Both the position numbers and the translations under genes were made by a program. Below, one piece after another: positions 4,428 to 22,100 of a stretch of 43,911 nucleotides of DNA. The DNA comes from Planctomycetaceae bacterium (lineage in GTDB: Bacteria; Planctomycetota; Planctomycetia; Pirellulales; UBA1268). The stretch is taken from contig JAIXPT010000114.1 in assembly GCA_027486095.1 (NCBI GenBank), positions 1 through 43,911 on the forward strand, in the 5' to 3' direction. Within the stretch, counting starts at the first letter, position 1, and each line of letters begins with the position of its first letter. Under the pieces are notes generated by a model. The model saw only the letters and a program-made list of their open reading frames with translations, ran no database searches and was not told the origin of the DNA.

Positions 4428-5063
4428 CTACGAACGTGCCTCACGTAGCCGTAAAGCTTGCCGCACCTCGAGGCTCGCCATCAGTACGTGCATTCCTGTG
4501 GCTGGAACTCCGTGTTCCAGTTGCATTGCATCCGGCAGGTCTTGCGCCCTCGCGATCGCGGCCATCACGTGGTTCAGGGCGAGCGGAATCGGCGGGCCGT
4601 CTTTTTTCGTATAGCCCGGAACGACTGCCCGGAGTAACGCCGTCATATCGTGGCAGCTGCTCACTGGCGGTGTCGGAGCTATGGAGAAGTGGAGGTAGAT
4701 CCAGAGCTCGAAACAGGGGCTCGAGATCGCGAGCCTGTAGCCCTTCTGGCGGCAGAGCGACATTACCTCGCTGAGATTCGGCAGATGCCCCCCGCGGGCC
4801 CAGTGATCGAGATCGATGCAGGCCCACAGTTCATCCGTGTCGCTGAGCTGAAAGTTGTCGGAGTATTCGTCGAGCCGCTGAACCACGGCGGCGGGAGATG
4901 AGCGACCATCCTCCGTGGGGAGAACCCGCACCTGGACTCTCGTCGTCCGAAATCGTTGGAAGTAGTGCTCGACGGCATAGGTGTCTTCAGACGCGATCAC
5001 GATCAGCGAGGCGTCGCGGACGATGCCGTCCTCGCGGTCAAGCTTGCGCGGTATGCGCGGCAT
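4428..5063 (-). CDS. RloB-like (Toprim-related) protein, partner of the upstream ATPase
   Basis: Contains the RloB signature SSPCFELWIYLHF and an N-terminal LIVIASEDTYAVEHYF block. It overlaps the ATPase stop by 26 nt. Confidence 0.8.
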   Translation of the reverse strand: MPRIPRKLDREDGIVRDASLIVIASEDTYAVEHYFQRFRTTRVQVRVLPTEDGRSSPAAVVQRLDEYSDNFQLSDTDELWACIDLDHWARGGHLPNLSEVMSLCRQKGYRLAISSPCFELWIYLHFSIAPTPPVSSCHDMTALLRAVVPGYTKKDGPPIPLALNHVMAAIARAQDLPDAMQLEHGVPATGMHVLMASLEVRQALRLREARS

Positions 5064-6420: not shown

Positions 6421-6660
6421 CGGGTAAAAACCCAGCGGGATAGGGCGGGATTCAAGCCGCCTTAGCAATACCCAAGTTTACCAGATAGGCGTGAAAAGTC
6501 TACGCGAGTAAGCCAATTCAGGTCGCCGAAGGCGATTCCCTGGCAAATGTCGCGTGATTAAGTCACGACCAAAGCGTTTGCGGCGGTATCCCACACCTCG
6601 CTGACCAAGGCGTCTCCAATCGCTTCACACCCCCCTGGAGAGGTGTGTGCCGGGAAGCCC

Positions 6661-7572
6661 TCACTCCTCGATGAAGTAGTCGGAGTCGAGTTTCTTGACG
6701 ACGAAGGTCTGGGCGGGAGTGCAGCCTACGTCGTGGAGGATCATGAGCCGCGCGAGGGTGCGGCCGTCCACGAGGACGATCTTCGTGTCGATCTGGTCGG
6801 CGTAGTCCACGGCTTCGCTTGTGTACGTGCTTGTCGTGACGAAGACGCCCTTTCGCGCCCGGCGGCCGTGGAGGGCACCGACGAACTTGTGGATCTCGGG
6901 ACGTCCAACAGGGTCTTTCCACCGCTTGGCCTGCAGGTAGATCGTGTCGAGACCGAGGCGGTCTTCGTGGATGATGCCGTCGATGCCCTCGTCGGCACCT
7001 TTGCCGGTCAGTCGGCCGGCTGCGTCACCCCAGCCGCCGTAACCCATCGCCCGCATGAGATCGAGAACTACCTTCTCGAAGAACGCGGGCGTGCGGTCGG
7101 CGATTTCGTCAAGGAGCTGCGCGGCGAGCTCGTCATTGAGGGCCTCATGGGCCTTCTCCAGCACAGCGTCAGGCGTCTCAAGTGCAGGCTGGGGCTCGGC
7201 TGCCTCGCCCGCGCCGTCCTCACTTTGACGGGACTGCCGAAACTTCCGAAACGACTCGAACCGTTCGAGGTATGCGAGGGTGATCGAGGAGGGATTCCCG
7301 GCGAGCACTTCCCGGCCAGCATCGGAGATGGTGAACACACCGCGACGCACGCGGTCGATCAGCCCGGCCCGCTCCAGGTAGATCTTCGCCCAGCAGAGCC
7401 GATTCACGAACCGAGTCTGGGTATTGCTCGGCAGGAGCTCCTGCCGCTCGGCGTCGCTTAGGCCGAAGTCGTCCGCGATCGGGCCACGCAGGGCCGCGAC
7501 CGTCCACTCCTTGCCGTCGGCTGAGCGACGGAGAAGCGGGAGGAGCATCTCGTGGAAGGGGGGAATGGGCAT
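6661..7572 (-). CDS. mrr: Mrr-family type IV restriction endonuclease
   Basis: Mrr_N-type N-terminus (PPFHEMLLPLLRRSADGKEWTV...RFVNRLCWAKIYLERAGLI). Catalytic core GKGADEGIDGIIHEDRLGLDTIYLQAKRW...KGVFVTTSTYTSEA. Confidence 0.9.
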   Translation of the reverse strand: MPIPPFHEMLLPLLRRSADGKEWTVAALRGPIADDFGLSDAERQELLPSNTQTRFVNRLCWAKIYLERAGLIDRVRRGVFTISDAGREVLAGNPSSITLAYLERFESFRKFRQSRQSEDGAGEAAEPQPALETPDAVLEKAHEALNDELAAQLLDEIADRTPAFFEKVVLDLMRAMGYGGWGDAAGRLTGKGADEGIDGIIHEDRLGLDTIYLQAKRWKDPVGRPEIHKFVGALHGRRARKGVFVTTSTYTSEAVDYADQIDTKIVLVDGRTLARLMILHDVGCTPAQTFVVKKLDSDYFIEE

Positions 7573-7685
7573 GGTTCCTTGCCATGGTTTAGTCGGCGGC
7601 TAGCGGGCACCTACGGATCTTGGGTGGAAGTAGGCGGGCCATCGTCTTGCCCAGGGTCAGAGGCCGGCACCTTTTCCTGCGGTGG

Positions 7686-8936
7686 TTACTGCAGTTCTAT
7701 AAGCGGTTTACGGTTCACTTTTCCATCCTCACTCTTGACCATCATGGCTCTCAGCACCATTCGAAATCGTGGATCTGCAAATGTATACGCGTCCTCTTTG
7801 GCCGTTTTCTTGAGCAGAGGCTTTGCTTCCTCGCCATTCGAGCGTGCTAGCCCACTTAGAATCTGATTGCAGTTGAGTTGTACGCCATCGGTACTGTTCG
7901 CAAACTCCCGCCGTACGATCTCCTCTATCTGCGACGTCCGGAACTCGTCCTGCTCGCACTTTGATAGAGCGTATAAGACCTGGTTCTTCCGACCGAGTCT
8001 CGTTTCCTTCTCGTTCATATGCGACTCAATGATTGAGTAGGCGTATGTCGACTTGGAGGTTGTCCAGGTGCTGTCCGCATGTTGCCAAACAGCTGCATCG
8101 ACGCGCTTTGCAGCCGAGGCGATATTGGCAACCTCAAGGCAGTATTCGTGAACCATCTGCGGCACTCGCAGTGTCACATAGCGGACGTGCTGAAGAAACT
8201 GTTCCTCTTCATCTAGGTCGAAGCCAAGAAGGCCGAACCCTTTCTTCACCAATTGATCGCATTGTTCTGCGGTCAAGATTGAGACCTCAGGGAGTTCCAC
8301 TAAACGATTTGCGACGGTTTGGCAGTTAGGCGTGCCGTAGTAGTAGCGTTTGAGGTCGGGTGGAACCCCAACAATCATGATTCTTACTCGGTACCGGGCG
8401 TACCTTTCGTCATCGCATAGCGTGATTATATCTGCTAACTCCTTGAGTAGCTCTTGGTCGTCGAATACGTTTTCTAAATTGTCAAGAACTAGAACCGCCG
8501 AACGGCCACCCGCTTTCCTATTGATGAATTCAAAGCAGCATTCGAGCGGCTCTTTTGCTCCCAGCGCATAGATGGCCTCGTGCGCGAGCGAGCCCTTCGA
8601 AACAACAGCATTTACTTCTGCCTGTTTTGTCTCGGTGTAACCGGTTTTGGTCGGTTCGATATAGCGGTCAATGACATTTTTCAGCTCAGCTGCGATGCTG
8701 CCAAACCGCGACGCGTTTGCGAGATTTGCGAGTTCGTACGTAATTCCGTGATCAGCGAGAAACTTCTTGTAGAGCCAGGTTTTTCCTGTGCCGCTACCGC
8801 CATGGAGGACGATGTGCTGCGTTGACTTGAACGCGTTTTTCATCGCTGTTTCAAGCGTCGGGCGATGAATATACATGGTCTTGCTGACCTCGGCTTGGCG
8901 TGGAGTGAATACCGTTTCGGGTGCACAGTGAGTCAT
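7686..8936 (-). CDS. P-loop NTPase (ORC/Cdc6- or AAA_16/22-like) with a probable C-terminal winged-helix; function unknown
   Basis: Walker A LHGGSGTGKTW (about 8778-8801). Walker B SAVLVLDNLE. The C-terminal part NQVLYALSKCEQDEFRTSQIEEIV looks like a wHTH. The gene is clearly AT-richer than its neighbours. Confidence 0.75.
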   Translation of the reverse strand: MTHCAPETVFTPRQAEVSKTMYIHRPTLETAMKNAFKSTQHIVLHGGSGTGKTWLYKKFLADHGITYELANLANASRFGSIAAELKNVIDRYIEPTKTGYTETKQAEVNAVVSKGSLAHEAIYALGAKEPLECCFEFINRKAGGRSAVLVLDNLENVFDDQELLKELADIITLCDDERYARYRVRIMIVGVPPDLKRYYYGTPNCQTVANRLVELPEVSILTAEQCDQLVKKGFGLLGFDLDEEEQFLQHVRYVTLRVPQMVHEYCLEVANIASAAKRVDAAVWQHADSTWTTSKSTYAYSIIESHMNEKETRLGRKNQVLYALSKCEQDEFRTSQIEEIVRREFANSTDGVQLNCNQILSGLARSNGEEAKPLLKKTAKEDAYTFADPRFRMVLRAMMVKSEDGKVNRKPLIELQ

Positions 8937-8955
8937 TGGTGTTCTCCGTGTAGGT

Positions 8956-9219
8956 CTACTTGATCGGCATTGTGGCGGCGGTTGGCTGGTAGACGGAACG
9001 CCTAGTTAAAGGATCGGCGGGGAGAGGGGAGAGGCGGGTGTAGTAGGGGCCGACGATGCGAGTGGCGGTGGTCATGGCATTGTGGATTTCGAGGATCGTG
9101 TCTTTCGTGCGGTAGGTGCCGAAGGACTCGAGTTCTTCCTTCTTCACGATCGGGAAGGTTTCCATGGTGTGGATCACCGCGTCGCGGGGCGTCGGGAGGG
9201 CGAACTTCAAGGCGTCGCT
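8956..9219 (-). pseudogene. Remnant of the last ~80 codons of a second methyltransferase gene, paralogous to 10990..15120
   Basis: Translation ALPTPRDAVIHTMETFPIVKKEELESFGTYRTKDTILEIHNAMTTATRIVGPYYTRLSP aligns with the C-terminus of the 1376-aa MTase (ALPTPRDAVSHIMETFPIVKKKDLESFGTYRTKDTILEIYDEMATAVRTGQPYQTRLSP). Nucleotide similarity is visible over ~210 bp. No upstream MTase body is present. Confidence 0.8.
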
Positions 9220-9259
9220 CGGCCGAGACTTGATGGCTTGTTTTTTCGCTTTTTGTCAC

Positions 9260-10912
9260 TTATTCCGAGTCGGTGGCTGGCGATGCGGGCTCGGGCGAGA
9301 GCCGGCGCTGCCGTGCCCGCAGATATGATGTTCGACCGGATTGCTCGCCGGGTTTCCAATTGGGCACACGCGTCCAGTTCGGGTTTGTGATGCAGTCGAT
9401 CTCGCGATCTACCTGAGCCCTGAGCCTTGCGGTGATTGTGGCTTCATCGCTTTGGTCGCTCGCCGGATCGTCGTCGTGTGACGCGTCAAAAAACGCAAGT
9501 ACAACATCAGTGTGCGTAAGAAACAGACGCCGTTCTTTCCCACCTGCGCCTGCAGCGGTTAGGGATGGTCTCACCCAATAGAGTCCTGGATCCTTCGCGG
9601 TTATGACGTACCGCATCTGTACTGGGTGATCGTCGGTGATCGAGATGGGGCGATCGCGGCTGATTCGTGAATGGCTCTCCCCTTCAAGCAGCGCATCGGT
9701 TGTTTCGATGCGCCACGGCAACGATGCGTCAAGACGTTTCAATTCAAACCGAACGGTCACGCTGTCGACCTGGCCGGCGCCATACTCAGGAGCCACGACG
9801 AACTCAGGCATCGGCTCATATCGGACGACATCAAGACAGTAAGCCGTTACTGCCAAGCTTTGGTGCCACCAAGGCTTTTGGATCAACGCGTTCAAGGCAA
9901 CGGGTCCAGGCCCCGCCAGAACATCTTGATATTCGCGCACGACCGGATTGATCGCGGCGACTGCCTCTTTGAGCAGGGGGTTGGAATCAAAAGTCCGGGT
10001 AAAGCCGCTTGCGGTTCCGTGGGGGCCGTCGGCCCTCATAAGGACAAGCGGCTGGGCTCCGGCTGCTTTAAGGGCCTCTTCCTGCACGAAAGCCGGCGTA
10101 GAAGTCCAGATCGCGAAAAATAGAAGCCAGGCGGGAAGAACAAGGGCTACCAACCACGCTACTCCAGTCATCAAGTACGCCAGCCATCGTGCCGGGGGAT
10201 AAGAGAGGAAAAACCGAGGCAGAGTAGATGGCGCTCTAACAGCGGCTTCGGAATCGACGACGGTGCCGCGCGCTAGAAAAGGAATCCACGATTGCGCGAC
10301 ATGCGCCTCATCAAAGAATAAGCTGTGACCGCCCGTGCGATAGCGGGTGTTTACGCCATCCGTTTCCATGAACCCGTAAGCGCCTGAAGCTCCGTAGCGA
10401 GAGACACAAATTTCTGCGACGACGGGCCACGTGTCCGTATCGCCGCATTCATTAAGCACGGAAAAAGTGCCTTGGACTGCGATCCGGCGAGTCACGGCAT
10501 TCCATGGAAACTGGCGGCTCAGTACGCCACCGCAAAGAATAAGGCGATGCGGGCGAACAACGTCGTACTTCCGCAAGCACTCGCCCAATACATGCGTACC
10601 GAAGCTGTGGGCGATGATTGAGATACGAGCCTGCCGTTGATCAGCGAGTGCGTGATCGTAAGCCGCCTTGAGTGTGTCTACGGCAGCACGCGCTCGTGAC
10701 ACTGGAGCCAAAAAGGCAAACGGACTGAACCATCCGTATCGGACTGCAACGCATTTCGTACCCGGCAATGACCGTTCGATTTGTGTCCCAACGCGTTCCT
10801 GCCATCCGCCCAAGTCTCGGATTCCGTGCAGCAGCAAAACAACGTGTGTGATTTGTTGGTTGTCCCGCACGTCTGGCTCGTCGTGAGCGTGGCTTGTTGT
10901 AGCCATCATCAT
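9260..10912 (-). CDS. Alpha/beta-hydrolase (lipase/esterase-like) fused to a transmembrane segment and an unknown ~270-aa C-terminal domain
   Basis: HVVLLLHG oxyanion-type start. Nucleophile elbow IIAHSFGTH (Ser103). Candidate Asp in ECGDTDTWP and His in TGGHSLFF. Hydrophobic stretch WLAYLMTGVAWLVALVLPAWLLFFAIW (about 10106-10186). I recognise nothing in the remainder. Confidence 0.8.
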   Translation of the reverse strand: MMMATTSHAHDEPDVRDNQQITHVVLLLHGIRDLGGWQERVGTQIERSLPGTKCVAVRYGWFSPFAFLAPVSRARAAVDTLKAAYDHALADQRQARISIIAHSFGTHVLGECLRKYDVVRPHRLILCGGVLSRQFPWNAVTRRIAVQGTFSVLNECGDTDTWPVVAEICVSRYGASGAYGFMETDGVNTRYRTGGHSLFFDEAHVAQSWIPFLARGTVVDSEAAVRAPSTLPRFFLSYPPARWLAYLMTGVAWLVALVLPAWLLFFAIWTSTPAFVQEEALKAAGAQPLVLMRADGPHGTASGFTRTFDSNPLLKEAVAAINPVVREYQDVLAGPGPVALNALIQKPWWHQSLAVTAYCLDVVRYEPMPEFVVAPEYGAGQVDSVTVRFELKRLDASLPWRIETTDALLEGESHSRISRDRPISITDDHPVQMRYVITAKDPGLYWVRPSLTAAGAGGKERRLFLTHTDVVLAFFDASHDDDPASDQSDEATITARLRAQVDREIDCITNPNWTRVPNWKPGEQSGRTSYLRARQRRLSPEPASPATDSE

Positions 10913-10989
10913 TTCCGTGTTACTGAGCTTGGAACGTGCGCCGGAGGCGCTTGCCTGCGTGCTCGGCGTCCTTGGAGGAGTGTTGTTAT

Positions 10990-13900
10990 TCAGTCCGAGT
11001 CAGCCTCGCCGTGATGGCGGACGGATGGGTCGGCCGAAGGCGGGGAGAGGCGGGTTTGGTAGGGCTGGCCGGTGCGGACGGCAGTGGCCATCTCGTCGTA
11101 GATTTCAAGGATCGTGTCTTTCGTGCGATAGGTGCCGAAGGACTCGAGGTCTTTCTTCTTCACGATCGGGAAGGTTTCCATGATGTGGCTCACCGCGTCG
11201 CGGGGCGTCGGGAGGGCGGACTTCAGGGCGTCGCTGGCGTTACGGGACCACTCGTCGGGTGTACCCAGGTAGAGCTGGAAGAAGGCGGCGTCGAGTTCCG
11301 CTCGCAGCAGGAAACGTCGATCCTCGTCCCACGCGAACGGTGGCCCCGGATACCCGCAGTCCGCGCCAAACGGTTCAAGGTCCCACGCGGTGTACGTTAG
11401 TTCGAGGATGCGGGGGAGCAGCCATTCGGCGACCGTTGAGCTCGAAGTCCAATCGCAGTGTGAGGCGAATGCGGCCGGGGGAAGGATCGGAAACTGCCGA
11501 ACATAGTTGTATGTGACGTTCGAGCCTCCGACTTTCTGTCGTGCAGCGTAATCAAGGACGAATGCGCAGAGCATTCCATACAAGCAGCACTGATGGACAG
11601 GCGACTCGGGCGTGACCGCGAGAAGCAGTGAGTGCGCTGTGGGACTTCTTGGCAGTAGGGATGCTAATAGCGTTCGGTAATCGCTATTGCGCGCTATGTT
11701 GCGCCACCCCAGCAACCAATTGAAGCGAGTGGTGTCGCTGAGGGCGGCGCGGACGTCCGTCTCTTTTATCCAGTAGTCCGGTTGCGTGAAGCGGTGCGGG
11801 TCGGCGTGGGCGGCGGCGTCGAGGCGCGGGAGAGCGCCGACGTTGAGTTGGGCTTGGGTAGCGCCTTCGTAGGTTGAGAAGCGATGGTCGAAGTGGTTGA
11901 CCATCTTGGCTTCGATCAGCGGCAGGAATTTGCCGAGCGGCCCGTTCCAGGTGTTGCCGGTGAGCGTCTGGTCCGCGGCTTCCATCTCTGCCCGCGTGCG
12001 AAAGAGGCCGGAGTCGCTGGCCATGTTGAAGAGACCTTGAGAAAACGAGAGTCCCCACGGGTTGCCGTCGGGCCTGGTTTCGTTCCAGAGCACGCCGGTG
12101 CGGCGGTAGATGTATTTGTTGAGTTCGGCATCGGCGACGGACCGGAACGTGGGGCAGGTGCGAGTGTTGGGGTTGAGGAGCGCAAAGTCTTCGGGCGTGA
12201 GCGTGAAGTGGCAGCGCTTGTCAGCGAGGGCGGATGCCTGTCGGGCAAAGAACAGAAGGTCGGCGGCTTTGGCGGAGCCGAGGCCGACGACTACGAACCG
12301 AAAGGAATGGTGAACGTCGGCGAACAGTTTGTCTTCGTTCTCGAAGTGATAGACGGCCGCAAGCGATGAGTTCTTCACGAGGTCGTCGAAGAAGGCTTTC
12401 GTCGTGTCGTCGGTGGCGATGCCCGCCGGCACGATGAAAGCGGCGCGGCCAGTCGGGTGGAGGACGGTGCGGTTCAGTTCCGAGAACACTGCAAATGTGT
12501 TGATCTTGCCGACGGCAGTGAGTGGGAAGCGGCCTGACTCACGGATAAGCTGACGGGCTCCTTCAGATTCGCGAAAGGCGTGCGCCCATTCCTGACTGAG
12601 TTCGGGTCGAGTAACAGGAAGCGATGCAATGAGTTTCTTGCGGGCCGCCGCATTTGGCGCGGTGGCTATCTCGGGTGCCCGCTCCGCAAAGAACTCCTGC
12701 TCGTTCATCTGCAGGGTTTCCCACACGGGATTTCCCAGGATGCAGTCGAATCCGCCCGTCCAGCCGTTCGGGTTCGCGGCTTCCGGGGCCGCTGCCTCAG
12801 TAAAGACGTCGGGGAATTCGAGGTGCCAATGGAAGAACTTGTATTGCTTGGCGAGGCGTTGGATCTCGTCGAGCATCCAGGGGGCGAGGGAGTGCGGGTT
12901 GGACTCGATCGCCCGAAATACTTCCTCGGTGACGGGAAAGTCGAACTCGGGCGTTTTCTTCCAGACGAAGGCGGCGCACCAGGCGTCGGCGAGCAGCCGG
13001 CCGGATTTGTAGTCGCTCGAGGACACGAGGGATTCGTATTGGCGGGCCTTGGCGGCCACCTGGTCGAGCGAGTCGTCGGGCAGGGCCGAGAGGGCGGCGT
13101 AGACGCTCGTCAGGTTGCCGAGCTTGAGCGGAGCAGCAAAGAGGCTTTGCTGCTTATTCTTGGCGTCTTCGCGTTCCTTCTTGTTGGCCTTCTTGAAGCG
13201 AGAGCAGAGCTTCTTGTCGTCGCCCTCGATCGGCTCGAATGCCGCATCGGGGATGCCGGCAGCGAGAAGGGCGGGCGTGGCGCCGAGAAGGCTGTTGCCG
13301 ATCTTGATGTGGTGGTCGAGAAACGAGAGCGGCTTGCCCGGCTCCATCGACTCGAGCCAGAGGTTCACGCGGCAGAGCTCGGCTGCCATGGGATTCAGAT
13401 CGACGCCGTAAAGGCAGTTGCGGATGCAGTCGCGGAGGGCGGTGCGATAGGCCTCGGGGCTCGGCTCGGTGTCACCTGTGCGGACGGCTGCGAGCCGCTT
13501 GGCTAGCCGATGGGCGGCGCCAATCAAAAAGTGGCCGCTGCCCACGGCCGTGTCGCAGATTTTTAATGCGAGTAGGGCATGCTCGGCGTCGGGGCCCCTC
13601 TTGCCGGCGAGGCGTTCGGCGAGGAGCGGCTCGAGAGCTGTGTCGAGGCAGACCTGCACGAGCGAGTCGGGCGTGTAGTGGGAGCCCGAGGTTTTGCGTT
13701 CGTTGCCGGCCGAGATACCGAGCGTAAACCGGTCGGCGGCGAGCGGGGCCGTGGGGTTGATCTCGGGGTGGAGTTCGAGGAGCTGTTCGTAGACACCGCC
13801 CAGTTCCTCGCTGCCGAGGTTCTTGTAGTCCACGGGGCGGCGGCCGTCTTTGTCGACGATGTAGGAGAGGCTGCGGACGGCGGCGAGGAGCGCGGCGTTG

Positions 13901-15120
13901 GAGAGGGCGGCGGTGCCGAGGAGGCCGAGGGCGGCGTCGCTCCAGAGGTAGCCGCCGAGGCCGAGCAGGCCGAGCGGGGCGGCACCGGCGCTGCCGAGCG
14001 ACTTCATCACGAGCTTGAGCGATTCGTAGAGGTCGCGATGGCGGTTGCCACGGGTGGTGCCGGCAAGCGTCTGGAGGCGAGTGGCAGAGTAGTTTTGCTT
14101 GTAGAGGTCGCGGGCCCGGCGAGGAGCGGCGGGGTCGAGGAGCAGGTCGCGGCTCTCGGTGACGAAGAGGAAGAGCAGACGATACACAAGCCGGAGGAGC
14201 TGGCGGTAGTACTCCTGTCCGGCGAGTTGCCCAGAGGCGAGGGCCGTGCGGAGGTCGTCGTTAGCGGGGTGGGCGAGGAAGCCGCGGCCGAGGGCTTCGA
14301 TCGCTTGCTTGACGCCAGTGGAAAGCTCGCCGAGCACGCGGGTGCCGACGGTGGCCCCTTCGACGTGCCACTTCTCGATGATGCACTCGTGGGGCTGGCC
14401 GTCGGCGGGAACGTCGAACCGCGTGGCGTGGAGCGTGAGCCAGAGCAGCCTAAAATCGGCAAACGACTGCCCCTTGAACATGGCCTCCAGGTCGAACTCC
14501 ACGAACGCCTGCCGCGTCATGCTCACGTTGTCGCGGACCAGCCTGAGCTGGCGGCCGTTGGAGACAAGCCCCCAGAGGGAGCCCTCGCTGCGGTTCAGCC
14601 ATTCCTGGATGAGCGAATGCGGGGCCGAGCGGCTGGCGCCCGTCACGCCCGAGGTGCGGCGGTCGAGCGGCACGTTCACGCCGACCAGATGGATCGGCAC
14701 GTGGTTCCACTGGTGGGAGATCGGAAACGACTGGCTGGACGAGCCGGTGGCGTCGTCGAGCGTGCGTGCGGTCGGGGTGGCCGTGAGCGTGCCGTAGCCA
14801 AGCTCCTGGAAGAGGAACCGCAGCCACTGCTTGAACGTGGGGCCGGCGGCGGTGTCGAGGAGCGGCGACGCGGCGAGGTCGTCGGTGAAGGCGCGGTGGA
14901 TGTCGGTGAGCCGCGTCCAGGAGCGGGTGATCGCCTCGCCGAGCCGCTCGCTCTCCGCGAGGCCGTAATCGGAGGGCCGCAGGCCGGGGAGTTTTGCGTC
15001 TTCGTTGGCCACTCGTTCGAGCACGTCGGTGGGCAGCATGGGCCCGACCGCGGTGACGTGCTGGAAGGCGAACTGGCGGCGTCGGCGGCTGGCGGGCCGC
15101 CGCAAAATGGCTGTGGACAT
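10990..15120 (-). CDS. Large gamma-class N6-adenine DNA methyltransferase (Eco57I/type IIG/PglX/DrmMI-like); candidate DISARM DrmMI
   Basis: Motif I ICDTAVGSGHFLIGA (13522-13560). Motif IV GNPVW (12721-12732). Also SHYTPDSLV, YGVDLNPMAAELCRVNLWL, HIKIGNSLL and FFHWHLEFPDVF. 1376 aa. Confidence 0.9.
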   Translation of the reverse strand: MSTAILRRPASRRRRQFAFQHVTAVGPMLPTDVLERVANEDAKLPGLRPSDYGLAESERLGEAITRSWTRLTDIHRAFTDDLAASPLLDTAAGPTFKQWLRFLFQELGYGTLTATPTARTLDDATGSSSQSFPISHQWNHVPIHLVGVNVPLDRRTSGVTGASRSAPHSLIQEWLNRSEGSLWGLVSNGRQLRLVRDNVSMTRQAFVEFDLEAMFKGQSFADFRLLWLTLHATRFDVPADGQPHECIIEKWHVEGATVGTRVLGELSTGVKQAIEALGRGFLAHPANDDLRTALASGQLAGQEYYRQLLRLVYRLLFLFVTESRDLLLDPAAPRRARDLYKQNYSATRLQTLAGTTRGNRHRDLYESLKLVMKSLGSAGAAPLGLLGLGGYLWSDAALGLLGTAALSNAALLAAVRSLSYIVDKDGRRPVDYKNLGSEELGGVYEQLLELHPEINPTAPLAADRFTLGISAGNERKTSGSHYTPDSLVQVCLDTALEPLLAERLAGKRGPDAEHALLALKICDTAVGSGHFLIGAAHRLAKRLAAVRTGDTEPSPEAYRTALRDCIRNCLYGVDLNPMAAELCRVNLWLESMEPGKPLSFLDHHIKIGNSLLGATPALLAAGIPDAAFEPIEGDDKKLCSRFKKANKKEREDAKNKQQSLFAAPLKLGNLTSVYAALSALPDDSLDQVAAKARQYESLVSSSDYKSGRLLADAWCAAFVWKKTPEFDFPVTEEVFRAIESNPHSLAPWMLDEIQRLAKQYKFFHWHLEFPDVFTEAAAPEAANPNGWTGGFDCILGNPVWETLQMNEQEFFAERAPEIATAPNAAARKKLIASLPVTRPELSQEWAHAFRESEGARQLIRESGRFPLTAVGKINTFAVFSELNRTVLHPTGRAAFIVPAGIATDDTTKAFFDDLVKNSSLAAVYHFENEDKLFADVHHSFRFVVVGLGSAKAADLLFFARQASALADKRCHFTLTPEDFALLNPNTRTCPTFRSVADAELNKYIYRRTGVLWNETRPDGNPWGLSFSQGLFNMASDSGLFRTRAEMEAADQTLTGNTWNGPLGKFLPLIEAKMVNHFDHRFSTYEGATQAQLNVGALPRLDAAAHADPHRFTQPDYWIKETDVRAALSDTTRFNWLLGWRNIARNSDYRTLLASLLPRSPTAHSLLLAVTPESPVHQCCLYGMLCAFVLDYAARQKVGGSNVTYNYVRQFPILPPAAFASHCDWTSSSTVAEWLLPRILELTYTAWDLEPFGADCGYPGPPFAWDEDRRFLLRAELDAAFFQLYLGTPDEWSRNASDALKSALPTPRDAVSHIMETFPIVKKKDLESFGTYRTKDTILEIYDEMATAVRTGQPYQTRLSPPSADPSVRHHGEADSD
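11030..11240 (-). repeat. Direct-repeat partner (inside the intact MTase 3' end) of the remnant at ~9010..9220
   Basis: Example: 11101-11215 gatttcaaggatcgtgtctttcgtgcgataggtgccgaaggactcgag...cacgatcgggaaggtttccatg versus 9084-9170 gatttcgaggatcgtgtctttcgtgcggtaggtgccgaaggactcgag...cacgatcgggaaggtttccatg. Same orientation. Confidence 0.8.
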
Positions 15121-15152: not shown

Positions 15153-15743
15153 CTACGGGCTGTGCCCGGGTTGGTGACGGGCATGAAGGGCCAGAAGCGG
15201 CTTCAAGTCGCGGGCGTCAGCGGCGCGGAGACAGGCGAGGTATTCCGAACGAATCGGGCTCTCAGCGACGATCGTCGCCGGCCATTCCACGATCGGGCAA
15301 TCGTGGATCCGCAGCCAGATGTTCGAGAGCATCCGCGACCAGCGGCCGTTGCCATTGCGGAACGGGTGGATCTGGACTGCCCGATGATGGATGAGAACAG
15401 CCTGCTCGAGGATGTCGGGCATATAGGGCTCGCGACCGCGAATGTCGTCGCACAGCTGGGCCATGTGCTCGCCGATGTGGCCGGGATCGCTGCCCAGCGA
15501 GAGTGGCCGGTCGCGGATCTGGCCCGCCCACGACCAGACGTCGCCGAACATTTCGCCGTGGAGCCGGAGCAGCCATCCGAAATCGAACGTGGCGACCTTG
15601 CGGGACGGAACGCCCAGGAGATAGCGGATCACGGCCCGCCTAATGTTCTCCGCCTCTGCGACGGCCAGTTGGGCGCGGGTGCGAATGTGCCGCTTGCGCA
15701 GACCGTCGAAATCGCTGAGCGGCGTTTCCCCGTCGGTGGCCAT
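15153..15743 (-). CDS. Fic/DOC family protein (mobile mystery protein B type)
   Basis: Fic motif HPFRNGNGRWSR. 196 aa. Sits 3 nt downstream of the HTH gene. Confidence 0.9.
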   Translation of the reverse strand: MATDGETPLSDFDGLRKRHIRTRAQLAVAEAENIRRAVIRYLLGVPSRKVATFDFGWLLRLHGEMFGDVWSWAGQIRDRPLSLGSDPGHIGEHMAQLCDDIRGREPYMPDILEQAVLIHHRAVQIHPFRNGNGRWSRMLSNIWLRIHDCPIVEWPATIVAESPIRSEYLACLRAADARDLKPLLALHARHQPGHSP

Positions 15744-15746
15744 GGT

Positions 15747-16133
15747 TCAATCAGCCCACAGCGTCTTGCCACCCGCGGCCTGCAGTTCGCGGGCGGTGCG
15801 ATCGACCATGGCGTCGAACTGGTGTCGCGAAAGCCCCTGGCCCTCGAGGGCCGAAGTCGCCTGCACGAGCGCTGCGGCCCGTTTCGCTTTCCTGTGGGCG
15901 GCTTGGCGGAGCAGCGAATCGACCGACACACGCGGCCGCAGCCCAAGCTGCATGCCCAGGGCTTCGGCAACGGCGGAGACATGACCCATGGCCACGGTGG
16001 GCTCTCCCCGAAGAACTCGCGCGACCGTCGCCGTGGAAATGCCGCTCCGCTGGGCGAGCTGCGGGATCGTCATCCGCAGTTCACGCCGGCGTTCGTCGAG
16101 GGATGCTCCGGTGGTGATGGCAGTGGCTGGCAT
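15747..16133 (-). CDS. XRE-type HTH protein (mobile mystery protein A type), probable antitoxin/regulator of the Fic gene
   Basis: LDERRRELRMTIPQLAQRSGISTATVARVLRGE is a Cro/C1 HTH. Start set at ATG 16133 because the 16 codons upstream (to 16181) fall in an AT-rich repeat-bearing region unlike coding DNA here. Confidence 0.8.
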   Translation of the reverse strand: MPATAITTGASLDERRRELRMTIPQLAQRSGISTATVARVLRGEPTVAMGHVSAVAEALGMQLGLRPRVSVDSLLRQAAHRKAKRAAALVQATSALEGQGLSRHQFDAMVDRTARELQAAGGKTLWAD

Positions 16134-16153
16134 GGCCCACCTCAAAAATAGCT

Positions 16154-16199
16154 TATGAGACTCGAAATCCTTCAAAATCATATCGTATGAGATACGAAA
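16154..16199 (-). promoter_or_regulatory. Two 14-bp direct repeats (TATGAGAnnCGAAA) in the AT-rich leader of the HTH-Fic operon; candidate operator
   Basis: tatgagactcgaaa at 16154-16167 and tatgagatacgaaa at 16186-16199 match at 12/14 positions and are spaced 32 bp centre to centre. They lie 20-66 nt upstream of ATG 16133. Confidence 0.4.
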
Positions 16200-16230: not shown

Positions 16231-16258
16231 AAATTGGAAAAGGCATCATTTTATGCCT
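16231..16258 (-). terminator. Intrinsic terminator after the SNF2 gene
   Basis: The minus strand reads AGGCAT-AAAATG-ATGCCT followed by TTTCCAATTT. The TAA stop (16251-16253) sits in the loop. Confidence 0.5.
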
Positions 16259-19109
16259 GTTCTGCCGGTCCGGACGGCAAGAGGACGTAGGCGCCCAGCA
16301 CGTCTACGGGCAGTTGCGGGCGGACGTCGTACTTGAGGCCCTTGATCCGGCTCTCGTCCCGCAGCTGGCGGTGGACGGCCAGAAGTGTCTTCGCCCGCTC
16401 GGCCGCGAAGCCGTCGAGATGCGGAGCGAGGGCGGCGGTGGCGTCTACGACCTTGCCCACGAACTGACGAGCCTGCTCCGGGGCGATGTTGGCGTCGGGG
16501 GCGGCCGTCAGCAGAGTCTCGGCCTGCTCGGGCGAGAGCCAGGAAGCCTGCTCCGGGGCGCCCTCGAAGCCCACGATGCAGCACTCCTCGGCCAGTAGCT
16601 CGCGGGTCTCGCTGCCCACCGTCCGCAGGATGTGGAATCGCAGCCGCAGCAAGAGGAGCGTGGTGCGCTTGGCGACGGCCTGCGTGCGGATCGCCCCCGA
16701 CCGGGCCGCCTTCGACGCCGCCGGCTCGTCGATCGCCGTGCCCACGAGAAAACTCGCCAATGCCTCGACGAACGGGTGCGTGCGGACGAGCAGGATCGTC
16801 TTGTCCACGTGGGGCAGCTCGAAGACCGCGTCGAACCGGTCAGGTAGGCCCTCGGGCAGGCCGGCTTTGAAAGCCGGATCGGTCGCCGTAAGGTCGATCG
16901 ACAGCATCGTGCGGCCGCCGGCCGTCTCGACCTGCTTCACGATGCCGCCGAGCGTTTCCACCGCCCGCGTCACGAATCGCTCCACGTCCACGGTCTTGCC
17001 GATCGACTGGCAGGCGTCGATCCAGCTTGCCGCCACGTCTGTGCGAATCGCCTCCTGGGCAAACATCGTGCGGGTGCGCTTCGACCGCTCGGCCTCCCGA
17101 TCCCACTCCGCGTGAAGATCTGTGGTGGTCGGTTTGAGATACTCCTCGACCTCGGGGAGCAGCTTTTGCGTGGCCTTGGCTGTGCCGCCCCGCAGCAAGA
17201 GCCCCTCGAAGATCGCCTCGATCGCCTTCTCCGTGTTGATCGGCACAGGCACGCTCACGCCCAATGTCTTCTGGATGCTGCGGTGCTTGTTGATGAGGAT
17301 GTCGAGGACGATGCCGTCGATGCCGTTGTCGGCCCCGTAGAGGAAGGCGATCTCCACCGTGGGCTGCCGCTGGCCATAGCGATCCACACGGCCCTCACGC
17401 TGCTCATGGCGGGTGGGATTCCAGGCCAGGTCGTAGTGGACGACGGCGTCGAACGATTCCTGCAGGTTGATGCCCTCGGACAGGCAGTCGGTGGCGACGA
17501 GCAGCCGCTTCTCGAATGCGGCAAGTTTCTCGACCCGCTCCTCCCGTTCGGCCGGCGGCAACGCCCCGGTGACGCAATCGATCTCGAGACCTTTGACGGC
17601 GAGGCGGTTTCGCAGTTCTGCCGCCACATACTCGGCTGTTGCGATGTAGCGGCAGAAGACGATCGGCGATCGCTTCCGCTTGAGCATGTCCTTGAGCAGC
17701 TTGACGAGGGCGGCGAGTTTGGCGTCGGCGTCGCCCTCCAGTTCTGAGGCCCGCTTGGCGAGCGTTTGCAGTCGGCGGCGGTCGGTCGGGGTAGGGGAGT
17801 CGTCGATCTCTGCCCCGGCCGAAGCATCGTCTGCCTCGTCAGCGTCCTCAGTGTCGGCATCGGTGGCGGCCGCTCGCCCCAACTCGTTGGCTTCCTCCTC
17901 CGACGCCGCCCCCAGGCCACGGGCCCGGTTCACGAGCGTCGCGGCCGCGGCAGCCGGACTCGACGAGAGGCTTCTCAAGAGAGCGATTGCGCTCCACCAC
18001 CGCACCCGCTGCCGACGCTTGTCTTCCCCCTCTACGGAGACGAGTTCCCGGGCGAAGTCGAGGCAGTCATCGAAGAGAGCCTTGTAGGGAGCCGACAGAG
18101 AGTAAGTGAGATCCTTGTGGACCTCCCGCTTTGGAAACGGCGTGGCAGCGTCGAGATAGGCCTCGATGTCGGCGCGGCGCCGCTGGATGAAGTGGCCCGC
18201 AAGGTGGCGTCGCTGTGTCTCGTGGGCCGGGCCGGAGAGATCCTCTGGCAGGTCGGCGAGGGTGGGGTCGAGCAGGCCGACGAGCGAGCGGAAGGCGGCC
18301 TCGTTGCCGCTGTGGGGCGTGGCCGTGACGAGGACGAGGTGGCGATCGGGCGACTTGGCGAGGTCGAGAAGCAGCTCGTGCCGCTGATGCCGTGAGCCGC
18401 GGGACTCGACGTCGCGGGTGCAGGTGTGGGCCTCGTCCACGATCACCAGTTCCGGGCACGTGCGGAGGAAGTCGGCTCGATAACGATTCGACTTGATGAA
18501 GTCGATCGAGATCACGAGGTGGTCGTGTACCTCGAAGATCGACTGGTCAGCGGCACACTCCCGCTCGAGCCGAGCGACGGTGCTCGCCAGCACGAGCTTG
18601 GCGTCGATGTGGAACTTGGCAGAGAGTTCCCGCTGCCACTGCTCTGCGAGATGTGGCGGGCAGAGCACGGCCAGTCGCTTTGCCTCACCGCGAGCGAGCA
18701 ACTCGGCTGCAATGAGGCAGGCCTCGACCGTCTTGCCCACGCCCACGTCGTCGGCGATCAGCACCCGGGCCTTGGGCTGCTTGAGAGCCACGAGCAGGGG
18801 CACGAGCTGATAGGGACGCGGCGTCACCGCGATAGAGCCAAATGAGCGGAAGGGGCCGGCACTGTTGCGAACGCCAAGCCTGACCGCGTCGCGAAGCAGC
18901 CCGCAGGAGCGGTGGTCGCCAGTGTGGACGGGGTCGGGCGGCGTGAAGACAGCGGGCTCAATCGGCTCGAGATCGGGCACAATGCCCGTGACTTCTTCCG
19001 CCACGCCGGCCAGCGGCCGCAGCATGACAAGGTGATCCTGCGACTCGGGCAGCACGACCCATTCCCGGCCACGGGCCTTCACGAGTGTTCCAATCGCGAA
19101 GCGACTCAT
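16251..19109 (-). CDS. SNF2-family helicase; candidate DISARM DrmD
   Basis: Motif I ADDVGVGKTVEA. Motif II LVIVDEAHTC. Helicase-C LLVATDCLSEGINLQ. Motif VI YDLAWNPTRHEQREGRVDRYGQ. Start set at ATG 19107-19109 (MSRFAIGTLVKARGREWVVL), which overlaps the upstream TGA as ATGA. The ORF-track extension to 19397 is Arg/Pro-rich and lies inside the preceding gene. Confidence 0.9.
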   Translation of the reverse strand: MSRFAIGTLVKARGREWVVLPESQDHLVMLRPLAGVAEEVTGIVPDLEPIEPAVFTPPDPVHTGDHRSCGLLRDAVRLGVRNSAGPFRSFGSIAVTPRPYQLVPLLVALKQPKARVLIADDVGVGKTVEACLIAAELLARGEAKRLAVLCPPHLAEQWQRELSAKFHIDAKLVLASTVARLERECAADQSIFEVHDHLVISIDFIKSNRYRADFLRTCPELVIVDEAHTCTRDVESRGSRHQRHELLLDLAKSPDRHLVLVTATPHSGNEAAFRSLVGLLDPTLADLPEDLSGPAHETQRRHLAGHFIQRRRADIEAYLDAATPFPKREVHKDLTYSLSAPYKALFDDCLDFARELVSVEGEDKRRQRVRWWSAIALLRSLSSSPAAAAATLVNRARGLGAASEEEANELGRAAATDADTEDADEADDASAGAEIDDSPTPTDRRRLQTLAKRASELEGDADAKLAALVKLLKDMLKRKRSPIVFCRYIATAEYVAAELRNRLAVKGLEIDCVTGALPPAEREERVEKLAAFEKRLLVATDCLSEGINLQESFDAVVHYDLAWNPTRHEQREGRVDRYGQRQPTVEIAFLYGADNGIDGIVLDILINKHRSIQKTLGVSVPVPINTEKAIEAIFEGLLLRGGTAKATQKLLPEVEEYLKPTTTDLHAEWDREAERSKRTRTMFAQEAIRTDVAASWIDACQSIGKTVDVERFVTRAVETLGGIVKQVETAGGRTMLSIDLTATDPAFKAGLPEGLPDRFDAVFELPHVDKTILLVRTHPFVEALASFLVGTAIDEPAASKAARSGAIRTQAVAKRTTLLLLRLRFHILRTVGSETRELLAEECCIVGFEGAPEQASWLSPEQAETLLTAAPDANIAPEQARQFVGKVVDATAALAPHLDGFAAERAKTLLAVHRQLRDESRIKGLKYDVRPQLPVDVLGAYVLLPSGPAEQA

Positions 19110-22100
19110 GGGGCCTGCCTTCCAAAGAGCCCGGGATGGGCGGCCACTGTGTCTTCCCAGTCGCCCTGAGCCGTGAATCGCAGGACGGTCCAGCCACAGT
19201 CGTTCACACACGCCTCCTGCTCGCGGTCGCGGGCCTGGCGGGTGGGGAACTCGTGCATCGGGCCGTCCACGTAGACGATCGTCATGTCGTCGGTATAGAC
19301 GAAGTCGGGGCGTGTCAGGCAGCCGTTGAGCGACGTCGGCACGTGCTGGGCGGCAGTGGGCAGTTTCAGATTGCGGGCTTCGAGGAACTCGAGCCACGCA
19401 CGTTCAAGACTGCTTTCACAGCGGCCAAGCAGGCTCTGGAGATGTGCCGCCCGCGGGGCTGCCGAAGACGAGGCCGCCACGCCAGCCGTCGCAAGCTGCA
19501 GGAGAAAGTCGCGGATGAGGTGGCGGTTGAGACGGTGGTGGTCGGGCTGGTTGGCATACGTCATTAGGCAGTCGTAGCAGGCCGTTGAGCAGTCTTCGCT
19601 CGCCCGCGGCGCTCGCTTGCGGTCCTCGCCCGTCGTGGGGTCGAAGTGGCAGATCTCGAGGGCCTGTCGAGCCACGCGGCGGAGGGCGTCGGGCTCCGCC
19701 TGCAGCCGCTGCAGAACGCCGGCGCCGCCTTCGCTCGATTCGAAGAAGAGAATCTGCCGCCGAATGTCGCGGCTCGGCATCGGCTCCGCGGCAAGCTCCT
19801 GGTCTTCCAGTTGAAACTCCACCTGGATCGCCGCCTTAAGGGCAGCCTGCAGGGATGCCATAAAGTCGAGCGGCGCGTCGCCCGTCGGCTCGAAGAGCAG
19901 CGTGTTGCGGGTGTCGGTGACGAACGGGATCACGCGGGCGACCTGCGGTCCTTCCACCTCGGCATCGCCATCGCCGGGCCGGTTTTCAGGATCGCCCACC
20001 CATTCACCAGTCTGTTCGTTGATATGGAAACCTTGTCGGTTTTCCAGCTTCTGGCGGAACCAGCCGAAGTTGATCCGCCACAGCTCGGCATTGCGGCCGA
20101 ACGTGAGACGGGCGAGAGGAATGCCACTGCACGTGACATCGCTGGTGGTGAATGACGGGACGCCGCCCGCCCGCTGGAAGCGGAACGCCGTCCGCACGTC
20201 GAAGCCCTGCTTCTGCCGCTCGTCTTCGTCGCAACTGATCCGCTCACGGCGGCGGGTGAGCACGTTGGTCAGCCGCAGCAGGCGGCCCTCCGCCTCAGGC
20301 AGCTCCGCATGGCAAAACTCGCAGCGGTCGTCGTCTGCCGCACCATCGACGGGGTGGAGATAGCCACAGGCGCGGCACTGCTTGGCCTTATGAAGCACGA
20401 GCCTCTGCTCGGAGTCGCTCGGCGGCAGGAGCACTTTTGTGACCTGATACCGCTGTCCCTCGTGGTAGACGAGGGACTTAGGGCCAAACTCGCTGATCGC
20501 CAGGAACCGGGGCCGGTTGAGGTATTCCTGGTCGCGGGCGCCAGCGCGCCCCGGGATGAAGGCCGAGAGCGGCAGCCGGGGGAAGTTGTAGCCCGGGAGA
20601 AAGCCCTCGCTGGCGAAGTAGCGATAGGAGTAGAAGTCGGACTGGTGACTCCCGGAGGTGTCTTGATTGAGCAGCAGGTCACGCTGGTTCTCGGCCTCTT
20701 GCCGAAACCGTTTCGCCTCGGCCTTATGTCGTGGGGAGATGGAGTTGTCGTTCTCCCGCTTGTGCTCGCGCTCCCGCTGGGCCATCGCCGCTCGGTAGAG
20801 CTGCCGCCAACGGTCGCAGGAACGATCGAAACGCTCCGGCAACTGGGCAAGCACCTCGTCGAGCCACGCGGGGGTGTACCAGCCGGCGACAGCCAGTTTC
20901 GGTGCGATCGAATCGAGCAACTGCCGGGCACGGCGGCGGGTGCGGGTCATCGCCGGTGCATTGTCGAGATGGCTCTGCACCTCGGCCGACAGCGGCATCC
21001 GCGGCTGCTGGTCGAGCATGAGCAGGTCGCGGAGGCTGTCACGGAGGTTGAGCCCCGCTTCCGACAGCCAGATCGCATGGACGTGCGACCGGACGAGCTC
21101 CTCGTTGGCGACGTCGACTCGCGGCGGTGCCACCGAGCCGGCAACCATCTTCTCCTGGCGCTGGAAGAAGTACTGGTCGTGTGAACTGCCGGCCGTGCAG
21201 TAGGTGATCACGATCGCAGGCTGGCCGCTCCGGCCAGCACGCCCGGACCGCTGGGCGTAGTTCGCAGGTGTCGGAGGCACATTGCGCAGGTTGACGGCGT
21301 TCAGATCGGCGATGTCGACGCCGAGCTCCATTGTCGGGGAACAGAACATGACGGGGAGCTTTCCAGCGCGGAACTCCGCCTCCCGCTCCTCCCGCTTGTC
21401 AGACGGCACTTGCGCGGTGTGTTCACGGCCCTCCATGCCGGCCACGTCGATGGCCGCAGTCTTGTAGAAATTCACGAAGAACTTGTTGGGCCGCAGGCCT
21501 GCCGCCGGTGAACGTGGCACCCGCAGCGGGCAGCGGAACGCCTGCGTGCCGTCAGCCGGCACCCAGCGGAGCGTGGAGGCATTGAGTTGGTAGGCCGGAT
21601 CGTCGGCCTTGCCCGAACAGACGAGATTCGTGCGAGTGAGCACGCGGCAGATATCACGAATGACGCCCTGCACTTCATCGAGCGGCACTCCAGCGGCAAT
21701 GTTGCCGGGCCGGCGCAGATAGCGGCCGAGCGTGCCGCGGGCGCTCAAGAAGACATTCGGCGAGCGCGCGTCGTTGCCCTTTGCACGGGGCTGTGCCAGC
21801 CGGGCCGTGACGAGCTCCTCCTCGGGATCGATCTTCCAGCCCTCGACGAGCCATTGGCTGCTTTCCCGCTTTGTCGCCTCCTGCCACTGCTCCGTCAGGC
21901 AGTCGGCCTGAATGGCTAGTTCCCGACGCAGGTAGTTGAGGAGCGTCTTGCACACCTCATGCCGTGCCTCGCCCGACGCGGCCACGAGGCAATGATGGGT
22001 GCCCTGCCAGTCGGCCGCGCTGTTGCAAATGTCTGCGAGCGATTCGTATTCGACCGTCAGCAGGCCGCACTGCTCGAGGTTGGGCATAGAGAGCCGCCAG

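Follow-up and report, generated by a model that had tools for sequence, protein, structure and literature searches.

In this study, we analysed a 43,911-nt stretch of DNA from a Planctomycetaceae bacterium (contig JAIXPT010000114.1, here called the window), in which the 3' end of a PglX-like N6-adenine methyltransferase (MTase) gene is present twice. The two copies bracket a single gene, encoding a predicted alpha/beta-hydrolase with a transmembrane (TM) helix. Copy B is part of the intact MTase gene, a counterpart of ArmB in ARMADA Type I defence systems. Copy A lies in an orphan fragment followed by an ATPase gene and then by a gene for an Mrr-type restriction endonuclease; all genes around the repeats are on the minus strand. 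We regard it as probable that the orphan represents the last ~87 codons and the native stop of a second ArmB/PglX-type MTase gene, that the ATPase gene was the next neighbour of this gene, and that two related loci have been spliced here.

Results

Two copies of the methyltransferase 3' end

An earlier note on this DNA had described the hydrolase gene as bracketed by direct repeats of MTase 3' ends, with an identity of roughly 80-90% judged by eye. A repeat search of positions 8000-12500 returned one substantial repeat family only, the direct repeats 9011-9219 and 11027-11235, which are 209 nt long, 85% identical (31 mismatches, no gaps) and 2016 nt apart from start to start. MAFFT alignment of the two regions recovered the same 209-nt block with non-homologous flanks on both sides, and comparison of the orphan region with the whole window by blastn gave E = 5e-65. 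Exact-match runs common to both copies measure 29, 28, 20 and 20 nt. Both copies encode, in the same frame, a conserved protein module (SDALK..METFPIVKK..YRTKDTILEI..PPPAD), so that the similarity is that of a coding module and not of low complexity. Copy B corresponds to codons 1296-1365 of the 1376-aa MTase open reading frame (ORF), and a single ORF lies between the copies. The description given in the note is thus accurate, including the estimate of identity.

Copy A is read in a single frame (SDALK..PTPRDAV..METFPIVKK..FGTYRTKDTILEI..PY.TRLSP.PAD). A stop closes this frame 13 codons upstream, and the residues preceding copy A (QKAKKQAIKSRP) are unlike their MTase counterpart (..LGTPDEWSRNA); copy A lacks a gene body. 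In the other direction the frame stays open for 87 codons and ends, after a divergent tail of its own, with the stop codon 8956-8958. An in-frame 3' module with its own tail and stop points to the remnant of a second, related MTase gene. The start codon of the ATPase gene (ATG, 8936) follows 19 nt behind the orphan stop, and with a GC content of 51%, compared to 65% for the MTase and Mrr genes, the ATPase gene is indeed AT-rich, as had been noted. A fusion of hydrolase and orphan by readthrough or frameshift was considered and rejected: both frames are closed in between, and homologues of the hydrolase end at the same place.

Relatedness of the MTase tails was assessed on 207 codon-aligned bases, with a tree built by neighbour joining. 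With the allele of the related locus L019, copy B shares 94.7% identity, with L020 90.8%, with both L021 and L018 89.4%, and with copy A 85.0%; copy A is 86.5% identical to L019 and to L020. In the tree, copy B groups with L019 (64% bootstrap) and copy A is placed elsewhere in the same clade (100% support); the two are not sisters. Because copy B is closer to L019 than to copy A, any duplication in place would need to be older than the separation from genomes without it, and from these alleles such a duplication appears unlikely.

At sites unanimous in seven other alleles, copy A shows ten private substitutions, nine nonsynonymous and one synonymous; the S of AVSH, the Y of IYD and a K of KKKD are examples of changed residues. 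Six intact alleles plus copy B together have 26 nonsynonymous and 21 synonymous changes (Fisher p = 0.07 against the 9:1 of copy A). The pairwise ratio of nonsynonymous to synonymous divergence (dN/dS) is 0.45-1.0 with copy A and 0.17-0.57 among intact alleles. Judged by its substitutions, the orphan appears to be a decaying pseudogene fragment under relaxed constraint, with no internal stop so far.

Within the intact MTase gene, a block at ~11440-12800 is 65-82% identical or unalignable to L019, L001 and L021, while both of its flanks are 88-97% identical. This variable block is probably the target-recognition region, exchanged between alleles. In the same profiles, the 3' end of the gene, a conserved stretch of ~400 nt which holds the repeat, lies directly downstream of the block.

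Related loci and turnover of the slot between the methyltransferase and Mrr genes

Against reference genomes, the locus falls in Planctomycetota, among Pirellulales-like metagenome-assembled genomes. Each of the two accessory genes is found without the other in relatives, the hydrolase gene in L010-L013 and the ATPase gene in L014-L016. L010-L012 show the order MTase - hydrolase (86% amino acid identity) - 185-aa gene - Mrr (86%), with a single MTase tail and with neither orphan nor ATPase gene; at the nucleotide level, they are homologous to the window from within the MTase gene across the hydrolase gene. L013 has the order MTase - hydrolase (61%) - lipase. Concerning the ATPase, L014 and L015 read MTase - FRG - ATPase (59%) - Mrr (76%), and in L016 an MTase 3' end is followed by the ATPase gene (66%). 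Together with the orphan stop 19 nt before the ATPase gene, L010-L013 and L016 bear out the proposal of the note that both genes have directly followed an MTase of this family. Two further loci, L117 and L018, are cut by contig ends and uninformative on the arrangement.

Variability downstream of the MTase, likewise proposed in the note, is found even among close relatives. The backbone of L001, L019 and L021 (helicases, 5' part of the MTase gene, Mrr and a conserved 393-aa gene, orf393) is ~94% identical to the window at the nucleotide level. Among such backbones, four different contents lie between MTase and Mrr. The slot of L001 holds a DUF4365 gene; that of L019 holds two genes of 112 and 158 aa, a stub of Mrr (Mrr') and a 379-aa gene; in L021, three unannotated ORFs on the minus strand come after HNH-like and FRG-domain genes. 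The sequences become homologous again precisely at the start codon of Mrr, the Mrr gene being 93.5% identical to that of L001 and 94.1% to that of L019 at the nucleotide level. Mrr is the conserved right-hand edge of the variable slot. In the wider family, the first genes downstream of the MTase at 77 loci fall into 53 sequence clusters, with domains including GmrSD, NERD, OLD/AAA_15, TIR, AIPR, YhcG, SIR2 and radical SAM. Diversity across phyla is expected at the end of any operon; the turnover among ~94% identical backbones is the telling evidence for a hot slot.

Some MTases of the family extend a further 130-210 aa past the C-terminal module (L003, L027, L034, L035, L046, L049, L051-L053, L055 and others). 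In 14 loci of this subfamily a conserved ~670-aa protein follows, for which no dominant Pfam family was found.

The Mrr gene leaves fragments too. L019 contains an 89-nt direct repeat (11864-11952 and 13216-13304, 85% identical), made of the first 30 Mrr codons and bracketing a single gene, the 379-aa gene, on the opposite strand; this pair mirrors the feature of the window with the other boundary gene. In L013 (~3950-4079) and L021 (9146-9385), Mrr is reduced to its last 65-80 codons, directly after the inserted gene, which in L013 is the lipase gene.

Orphan methyltransferase tails in other loci

The sample for recurrence consisted of short-protein matches on long contigs and of a hidden Markov model scan of the six-frame translations of fetched loci. 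We found orphan MTase tails in no fewer than six further, unrelated loci, two of which have pairs of tails around a single gene. L116, a metagenome-assembled genome of Sumerlaeota, has a 283-nt pair (84.5% identical, 2169 nt apart) around one SLFN/AlbA_2-HATPase_c_4 gene, with no intact MTase of the tail's type nearby. L114 (5996-12417) carries an array consisting of a distantly related MTase, a tail of 130 codons with a TIR gene, a tail split by a DDE transposase with a DUF2971 gene, and a tail of 64 codons with a PDDEXK_1 gene; the tails are mutually 83-92% identical and derive from another MTase subfamily than the resident gene. The orphan tails of L114 and L116 are frameshifted or truncated. 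A lone 71-codon tail lies beside transposases in L017, and stubs of 20-27 codons directly follow the first gene downstream of the MTase in L026/L029, L045 and L055.

The 5' ends of the orphans are not uniform (MTase residues 1241, 1262, 1275, 1286, 1296, 1299 and 1307, besides shorter stubs and much longer remnants), which fits random breakpoints and not a defined site. In every case the orphan starts 9-127 nt after the stop of the preceding gene, and no stub of the donor's next gene is present. This short spacing may reflect selection and later compaction; alternatively, it may mark a defined cassette end. Any second copy of the module was found in ~4 of 80 metagenome loci, and the C-terminal module itself is widespread, with 1845 cluster representatives at E <= 0.001. 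The similar leftovers in other genomes suggest that such splicing is a common route of gene gain in these islands. ARMADA remnants of another kind occur in L081 (3-1801) and L087 (6860-10336), where internal deletions have removed the SNF2 gene and fused what is left of the YprA-like helicase gene, its 5' part, to a 3' part of the MTase.

The junction and a conserved element upstream of Mrr

The 40 nt between hydrolase stop and orphan have no match to the MTase and occur once in the window; a 26-nt junction string is unique. Collinear homology of L010-L012 to the window ends at 9253, 7 nt past the hydrolase stop. Because the left junction of the orphan has no MTase homology, at least one of the joins must be illegitimate.

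An element of ~45 nt, AAAGGTGCCAGCCACCAAATCYGGGCAAGA (AAAGGTGCC.GCC...GGGCAAGA), precedes Mrr or Mrr stubs by 63-86 nt in the window, L001, L014 and L019. Matches by nhmmer were obtained in the window, in L001 (6904-6950), L014 (3212-3258), L013 (2844-2886) and L015, and three times in L019 (a tandem double at 11678-11723 and 11757-11800, and 13086-13129). In L013 the element sits directly after the hydrolase stop, left behind there. The junction of the window resembles this element (GCGAAAAA..AGCCAYCAARTCT.GG); the likeness is weak, 3.9% of random 48-mers scoring equally. The junction may be a degenerate copy of the pre-Mrr element, and if so, an ancestor with the order hydrolase-element-Mrr might tentatively be assumed, which the remnant-ATPase block entered just past the element. 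No motif common to the intergenic junctions, such as a shared recombination site, was found; the single conserved element tracks the upstream side of Mrr and not the cassette ends.

The hydrolase-TM and ATPase genes

The hydrolase-TM protein belongs to no family in Pfam, PADLOC or NCBIfam, and the same is true of the C-terminal module of the MTase. Full-length relatives are rare, with only 12 homologues in 5.8 billion clusters. In these 12 homologues, an HG motif, S102 (in AHSFG), D159 and H195 are invariant. Residues 20-280 are modelled with confidence by AlphaFold (AF2), as an alpha/beta fold with a long helix behind it (238-270); the hydrolase region spans residues ~20-230, the TM helix residues 238-270, and the C-terminal region is not modelled. 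Foldseek matched the model to serine hydrolases and lipases (E ~4e-6). The intervening gene is accordingly predicted to encode a Ser-Asp-His alpha/beta-hydrolase with a TM helix, in agreement with the earlier reading of this gene. Relatives of the hydrolase and TM part (residues ~20-265), ~25-33% identical, occur on predicted viral or prophage contigs of IMG/VR (L099-L113). Scans of viral contigs with the hydrolase gave only such relatives at ~30%, and those with the ATPase and with the MTase tail gave nothing. The ATPase belongs to a widespread family with 330 homologues, the nearest 65-66% identical. Both hydrolase and ATPase may be candidate partners of the MTase system.

Organization of the locus

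Table 1. Annotated features in minus-strand order (positions in the window)
Feature	Position	Strand	Remarks
YprA-like DExH helicase with DUF1998/MZB and C-terminal Vsr-type (DUF559) nuclease, ArmC-like	19106..24346	-	1746 aa; Pfam, PADLOC
SNF2/BrxHII/DrmD-like helicase, ArmA-like	16251..19397	-	Pfam SNF2-rel_dom, Helicase_C; PADLOC DpdE/DrmD/BrxHII
PglX/DrmMI-like N6-adenine MTase, ArmB-like	10990..15120	-	1376 aa; Pfam Eco57I, N6_Mtase
Repeat copy B, conserved C-terminal module	11027..11235	-	MTase codons 1296-1365; 94.7% to L019 allele
Predicted alpha/beta serine hydrolase with TM helix	9260..10912	-	only gene between the repeats
Junction between hydrolase stop and orphan	9220..9259	-	40 nt; no MTase homology
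Orphan, probable 3' remnant of a second ArmB-type MTase gene	8956..9219	-	copy A (9011-9219), own tail and stop (8956-8958)
AAA_22/ORC-like ATPase gene	7686..8936	-	51% GC; Pfam AAA_22; GGAG motif precedes start
Conserved intergenic element, ~45 nt	7635..7679	-	63 nt upstream of Mrr; nhmmer
Mrr-type Type IV restriction endonuclease	6661..7572	-	Pfam Mrr_cat, Mrr_N

The YprA-like helicase-nuclease fits the first gene of an ARMADA Type I operon. Pfam finds DEAD, Helicase_C and MZB/DUF1998 (PF09369, residues 1499-1594) domains in it, and predicts a DUF559 (Vsr-like) domain at residues 1681-1726 (E = 1e-4, 22.6 bits against a cutoff of 20.6). In PADLOC its best match is DruE (2.5e-98); DrmA (2e-17) and DpdJ match more weakly. 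PADLOC 2023 predates ARMADA, and the DruE match agrees with the stated relationship of ARMADA to Druantia. The SNF2 helicase matches DrmD (1e-86) and BrxHII (8e-63) in PADLOC, and scores 335.7 bits with the NCBIfam model of DrmD, NF038317, below its cutoff of 610. The mechanical ORFs of both helicases overlap by 292 nt (19106-19397); family matches of the SNF2 helicase begin near residue 100, and its true start is probably near codon 100. The MTase finds its best PADLOC matches among DrmMI (5e-65) and Type IIG enzymes, with PglX at 3e-11.

Genes for a helix-turn-helix (HTH) protein (144 aa) and a Fic protein (196 aa) lie between the SNF2 and MTase genes (15153-16181, minus strand), the latter being a 'mobile mystery protein B' by the cutoff of NCBIfam. 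Both genes occur in the window, L002 and L006, but not in the ~94% identical backbones of L001, L019 and L021, and their site is a second insertion point within the operon. Another variable slot extends from Mrr to the conserved 393-aa gene: the window has an AAA_21 ATPase, RloB and a 241-aa gene there (3660-6468, minus strand), and L001 (7876-9687) and L019 (14086-15867) have a 358-aa or 368-aa gene, respectively, and a RES-domain gene.

Beyond the operon, the window contains a DUF3987 primase, the AAA_21/RloB pair, two AbiE pairs, a helicase-nuclease and a large serine recombinase, and is a mobile-element-like defence island. A search for tRNA genes that could serve as integration targets found none in the window. 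Apart from the MTase tails, the 43.9 kb contain a single repeat, unrelated to them: two direct copies of 75 nt (36641-36715 and 39381-39455, 89% identical). Between these copies lie a small ORF and the 5' portion of the large serine recombinase gene, and a gene for a pseudouridine synthase comes next; the pair may represent an att or target duplication at a mobile-element edge. The repeat search of the whole window revealed no inverted repeats.

Discussion

The present order MTase - hydrolase-TM - MTase' remnant - ATPase - Mrr probably arose by joining an 'MTase-hydrolase' block, such as in L010-L013, to an 'MTase'-ATPase-Mrr' block, such as in L016 and L014/L015, both from related defence islands. 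One side might have been resolved anywhere in the shared backbone, which comprises the ARMADA genes and the MTase body to the left and Mrr onward to the right. On the other side, the 3' flank of the hydrolase gene would have been joined non-homologously to codon ~1296 of MTase', either by illegitimate recombination or by deletion between tandem systems. A non-homologous left junction, with shared backbone on both sides, would be the signature of homology-facilitated illegitimate recombination or, equally, of a deletion between two tandem related systems; the order of events and the one-sided homology are inferred. Of the two processes named in the earlier note, recombination between two related loci is thus favoured, but a clean exchange using the MTase 3' end as homology arm is not: it would leave no duplicate, and the left junction is non-homologous.

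Constraint on MTase loss is a plausible driver. A self-protecting MTase could not be lost while its restriction partners remain, so that only replacements keeping one intact MTase would survive, and the displaced tail would stay behind with its old neighbour as a layer. Exact runs of 20-29 nt are near the minimum for RecA-dependent exchange. It is possible that the repeats now allow a rare RecA-dependent loss of the hydrolase gene, which would place an in-frame chimeric MTase next to the ATPase.

Several points weigh against the splicing of two loci. The donor allele is unsampled, the nearest MTase tail being 86.5% and the nearest ATPase 66% identical, and the parents are deduced from distant relatives. 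L016 is a 1.9-kb contig starting inside the MTase tail, and its MTase may be a remnant too. The tree is built on 207 nt of a recombining region, with bootstrap values of at most 64% inside the clade. Either direction is conceivable: the hydrolase block may have come to an MTase'-ATPase locus, or a remnant-ATPase block to the downstream side of the hydrolase gene. Microhomology at the junction is unreadable without the parents, and the window is a single assembled contig.

Alternatively, the hydrolase gene may have been inserted in the 3' end of one MTase-ATPase locus with a long target duplication (~210 nt or more), whose downstream copy has since decayed to 85% identity. This is reportedly what Nobusato et al. 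2000 and Furuta et al. 2010 found for restriction-modification genes in Helicobacter, and it would account for one gene within same-orientation repeats of the target gene's end and for a downstream copy under relaxed constraint. We nevertheless think it unlikely, given that copy B is nearer to L019 and L020, which have neither hydrolase nor orphan, than to copy A, and that copy A is no nearer to copy B than to these two alleles, although on 207 nt with weak bootstrap. Moreover, L010-L013 have the MTase-hydrolase order without a duplicate, comparable pairs elsewhere are 83-92% identical and never near-identical, and the 40-nt junction and the divergent tails would stay unexplained. An assembly artefact, that is a chimeric contig of an MTase-hydrolase strain and an MTase'-ATPase strain, is conceivable for a contig seen once and probably metagenomic, yet it is highly improbable: a strain chimera would switch in shared sequence and produce one hybrid tail, not two tails with a gene and a 40-nt junction, and the same architecture is present in the independent assemblies L116, L114 and L019.

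The recurrence of tails also permits a reading as a cassette system, in which circles consisting of the MTase 3' module and one gene would be excised at module copies and re-integrated by a single RecA-dependent crossover in any ArmB-type 3' module. Arrays would then arise in an integron-like manner without a dedicated integrase, a picture to which we give little credence. The layout shared by the window, L116 (a 2169-nt unit) and L114 (three units) would suit it, as would left junctions that always lie 9-127 nt past the preceding stop without partial ORFs, the exact runs shared by the copies of the window, and the position of the module as the last conserved DNA between the variable block and the variable slot. 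Against it stand the varying 5' ends of the orphans, along with longer and internal-deletion remnants, the hydrolase gene of L010-L013 without a second module, the second copies in only ~4 of 80 metagenome loci, the decay of the orphans (frameshifts in L116 and L114, relaxed constraint in the window) and the similar stubs left by Mrr, which show the effect to be unspecific for the MTase module. That such circles exist at all is doubtful to us, and so is, to the same degree, the broader notion of the ArmB/PglX 3' module as a recombinase-free docking site, with which single defence genes travel and at which they are captured or lost by homologous recombination; if true, it would build arrays like MTase-[tail-TIR]-[tail-DUF2971]-[tail-PDDEXK] in L114, and the window would be an array of two units, caught in the act. 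There is very little, finally, to recommend a functional orphan, either as a small protein mimicking the C-terminal module of the MTase or as DNA with a promoter or regulatory region of the ATPase gene. In its favour, the frame has stayed free of stops over 87 codons although the divergence is 15%, and the orphan abuts the ATPase start; some BREX loci encode the C-terminal part of PglX in a separate ORF (PMC9881135). But the nonsynonymous excess falls on residues unanimous in seven other alleles of the clade, the only in-frame upstream start is a mechanical TTG without a Shine-Dalgarno-like sequence, and promoter and terminator predictions in and around the orphan are, on the coding strand, no better than in shuffled sequence. 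The orphan peptide matched short proteins only, the nearest 72% identical, with no identical or close small-protein relative, and the counterparts in L114 and L116 are frameshifted or truncated.

Defence islands are known mosaics, but the events that add or remove genes are seldom visible. The scar described here shows what was joined to what. Its recurrence, sometimes layered, suggests that MTase replacement repeatedly draws in new neighbours and strands old ones. If this is true, such leftovers could serve to retrace in which order genes were acquired by defence islands, and they could help to nominate partners of ARMADA-type systems, e.g. the hydrolase-TM protein, the AAA_22 ATPase, TIR, SLFN-like and other proteins.

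We re-label the locus as ARMADA Type I; this system was first described in 2025. ARMADA stands for disARM-related Antiviral Defense Array, and ARMADA II has been tested experimentally (PMC13463889). Type I is defined by a YprA-like helicase with fused Vsr nuclease, a BrxHII-like helicase and a PglX-like MTase, in this order (bioRxiv 10.1101/2025.09.15.676423). The window has a YprA-DUF1998-Vsr helicase, a BrxHII/RapA-like SNF2 helicase and a PglX-like MTase in the same order (24346 to 10990), within an island that is likewise mobile-element-like, with primase, serine recombinase and AbiE pairs; it differs by the HTH and Fic pair ('mobile mystery protein A/B') between SNF2 and MTase. By gene set and order, the locus fits ARMADA Type I and not canonical DISARM. 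Keyword searches of the ARMADA papers found no mention of a variable slot or of orphan MTase tails downstream of ArmB.

Class 1 DISARM consists of DrmD, DrmMI, DrmA, DrmB and DrmC. The DISARM label of the earlier note is right in so far as the SNF2 helicase and the MTase have DrmD and DrmMI as best or near-best PADLOC matches and a DUF1998 helicase is present. It fails on the canonical genes and on the DrmD score, which remains below its cutoff. DISARM has separate DrmA and DrmB, whereas the window has both fused in the 1746-aa ORF, which is far closer to DruE than to DrmA; the gene order differs, and the Vsr nuclease is fused. No phospholipase-D family match, as expected for DrmC, was found with Pfam in 26 ORFs of the window, small ORFs left out. 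The note had also equated the slot downstream of the MTase with the usual site of the DISARM accessory nuclease. Here, the nuclease is part of the YprA-like helicase, which leaves no such position after the MTase.

Partial copies of the same MTase family near a full gene, with a variable middle and constant N- and C-terminal parts, are also known from the programmed-inversion 'shufflons' of PglX/DrmMI-type MTases (PMC9881135). A shufflon was rejected, the copy in the window being direct and limited to the constant C-terminal module, with no adjacent invertase gene and no inverted repeats. An integron-like or other site-specific array was rejected as well: the junctions share no motif, the only recombinase gene lies ~25 kb from the repeats, and the 5' ends of the fragments vary. 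With the insertion with long target duplication of restriction-modification genes, reportedly described by the Kobayashi laboratory, the window shares a defence-related gene within direct repeats of ~100-300 bp from a flanking gene. Its repeats differ in being only 85% identical, and they look like two alleles and not like one duplicated target.

A further likeness is to homology-facilitated illegitimate recombination, with one homologous anchor and one illegitimate join, the latter typically at 3-10 nt of microhomology; this process is known from natural transformation in Acinetobacter and Streptococcus. There, genes are added beside a conserved anchor with a non-homologous far join, and local duplication or deletion can leave an orphan gene end by the new gene. 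A deletion between tandem systems gives the same product, and in the present case neither parent has been sampled. The feature of the window is a recombination scar of a known kind, notable for its legibility and for its recurrence in unrelated defence islands.

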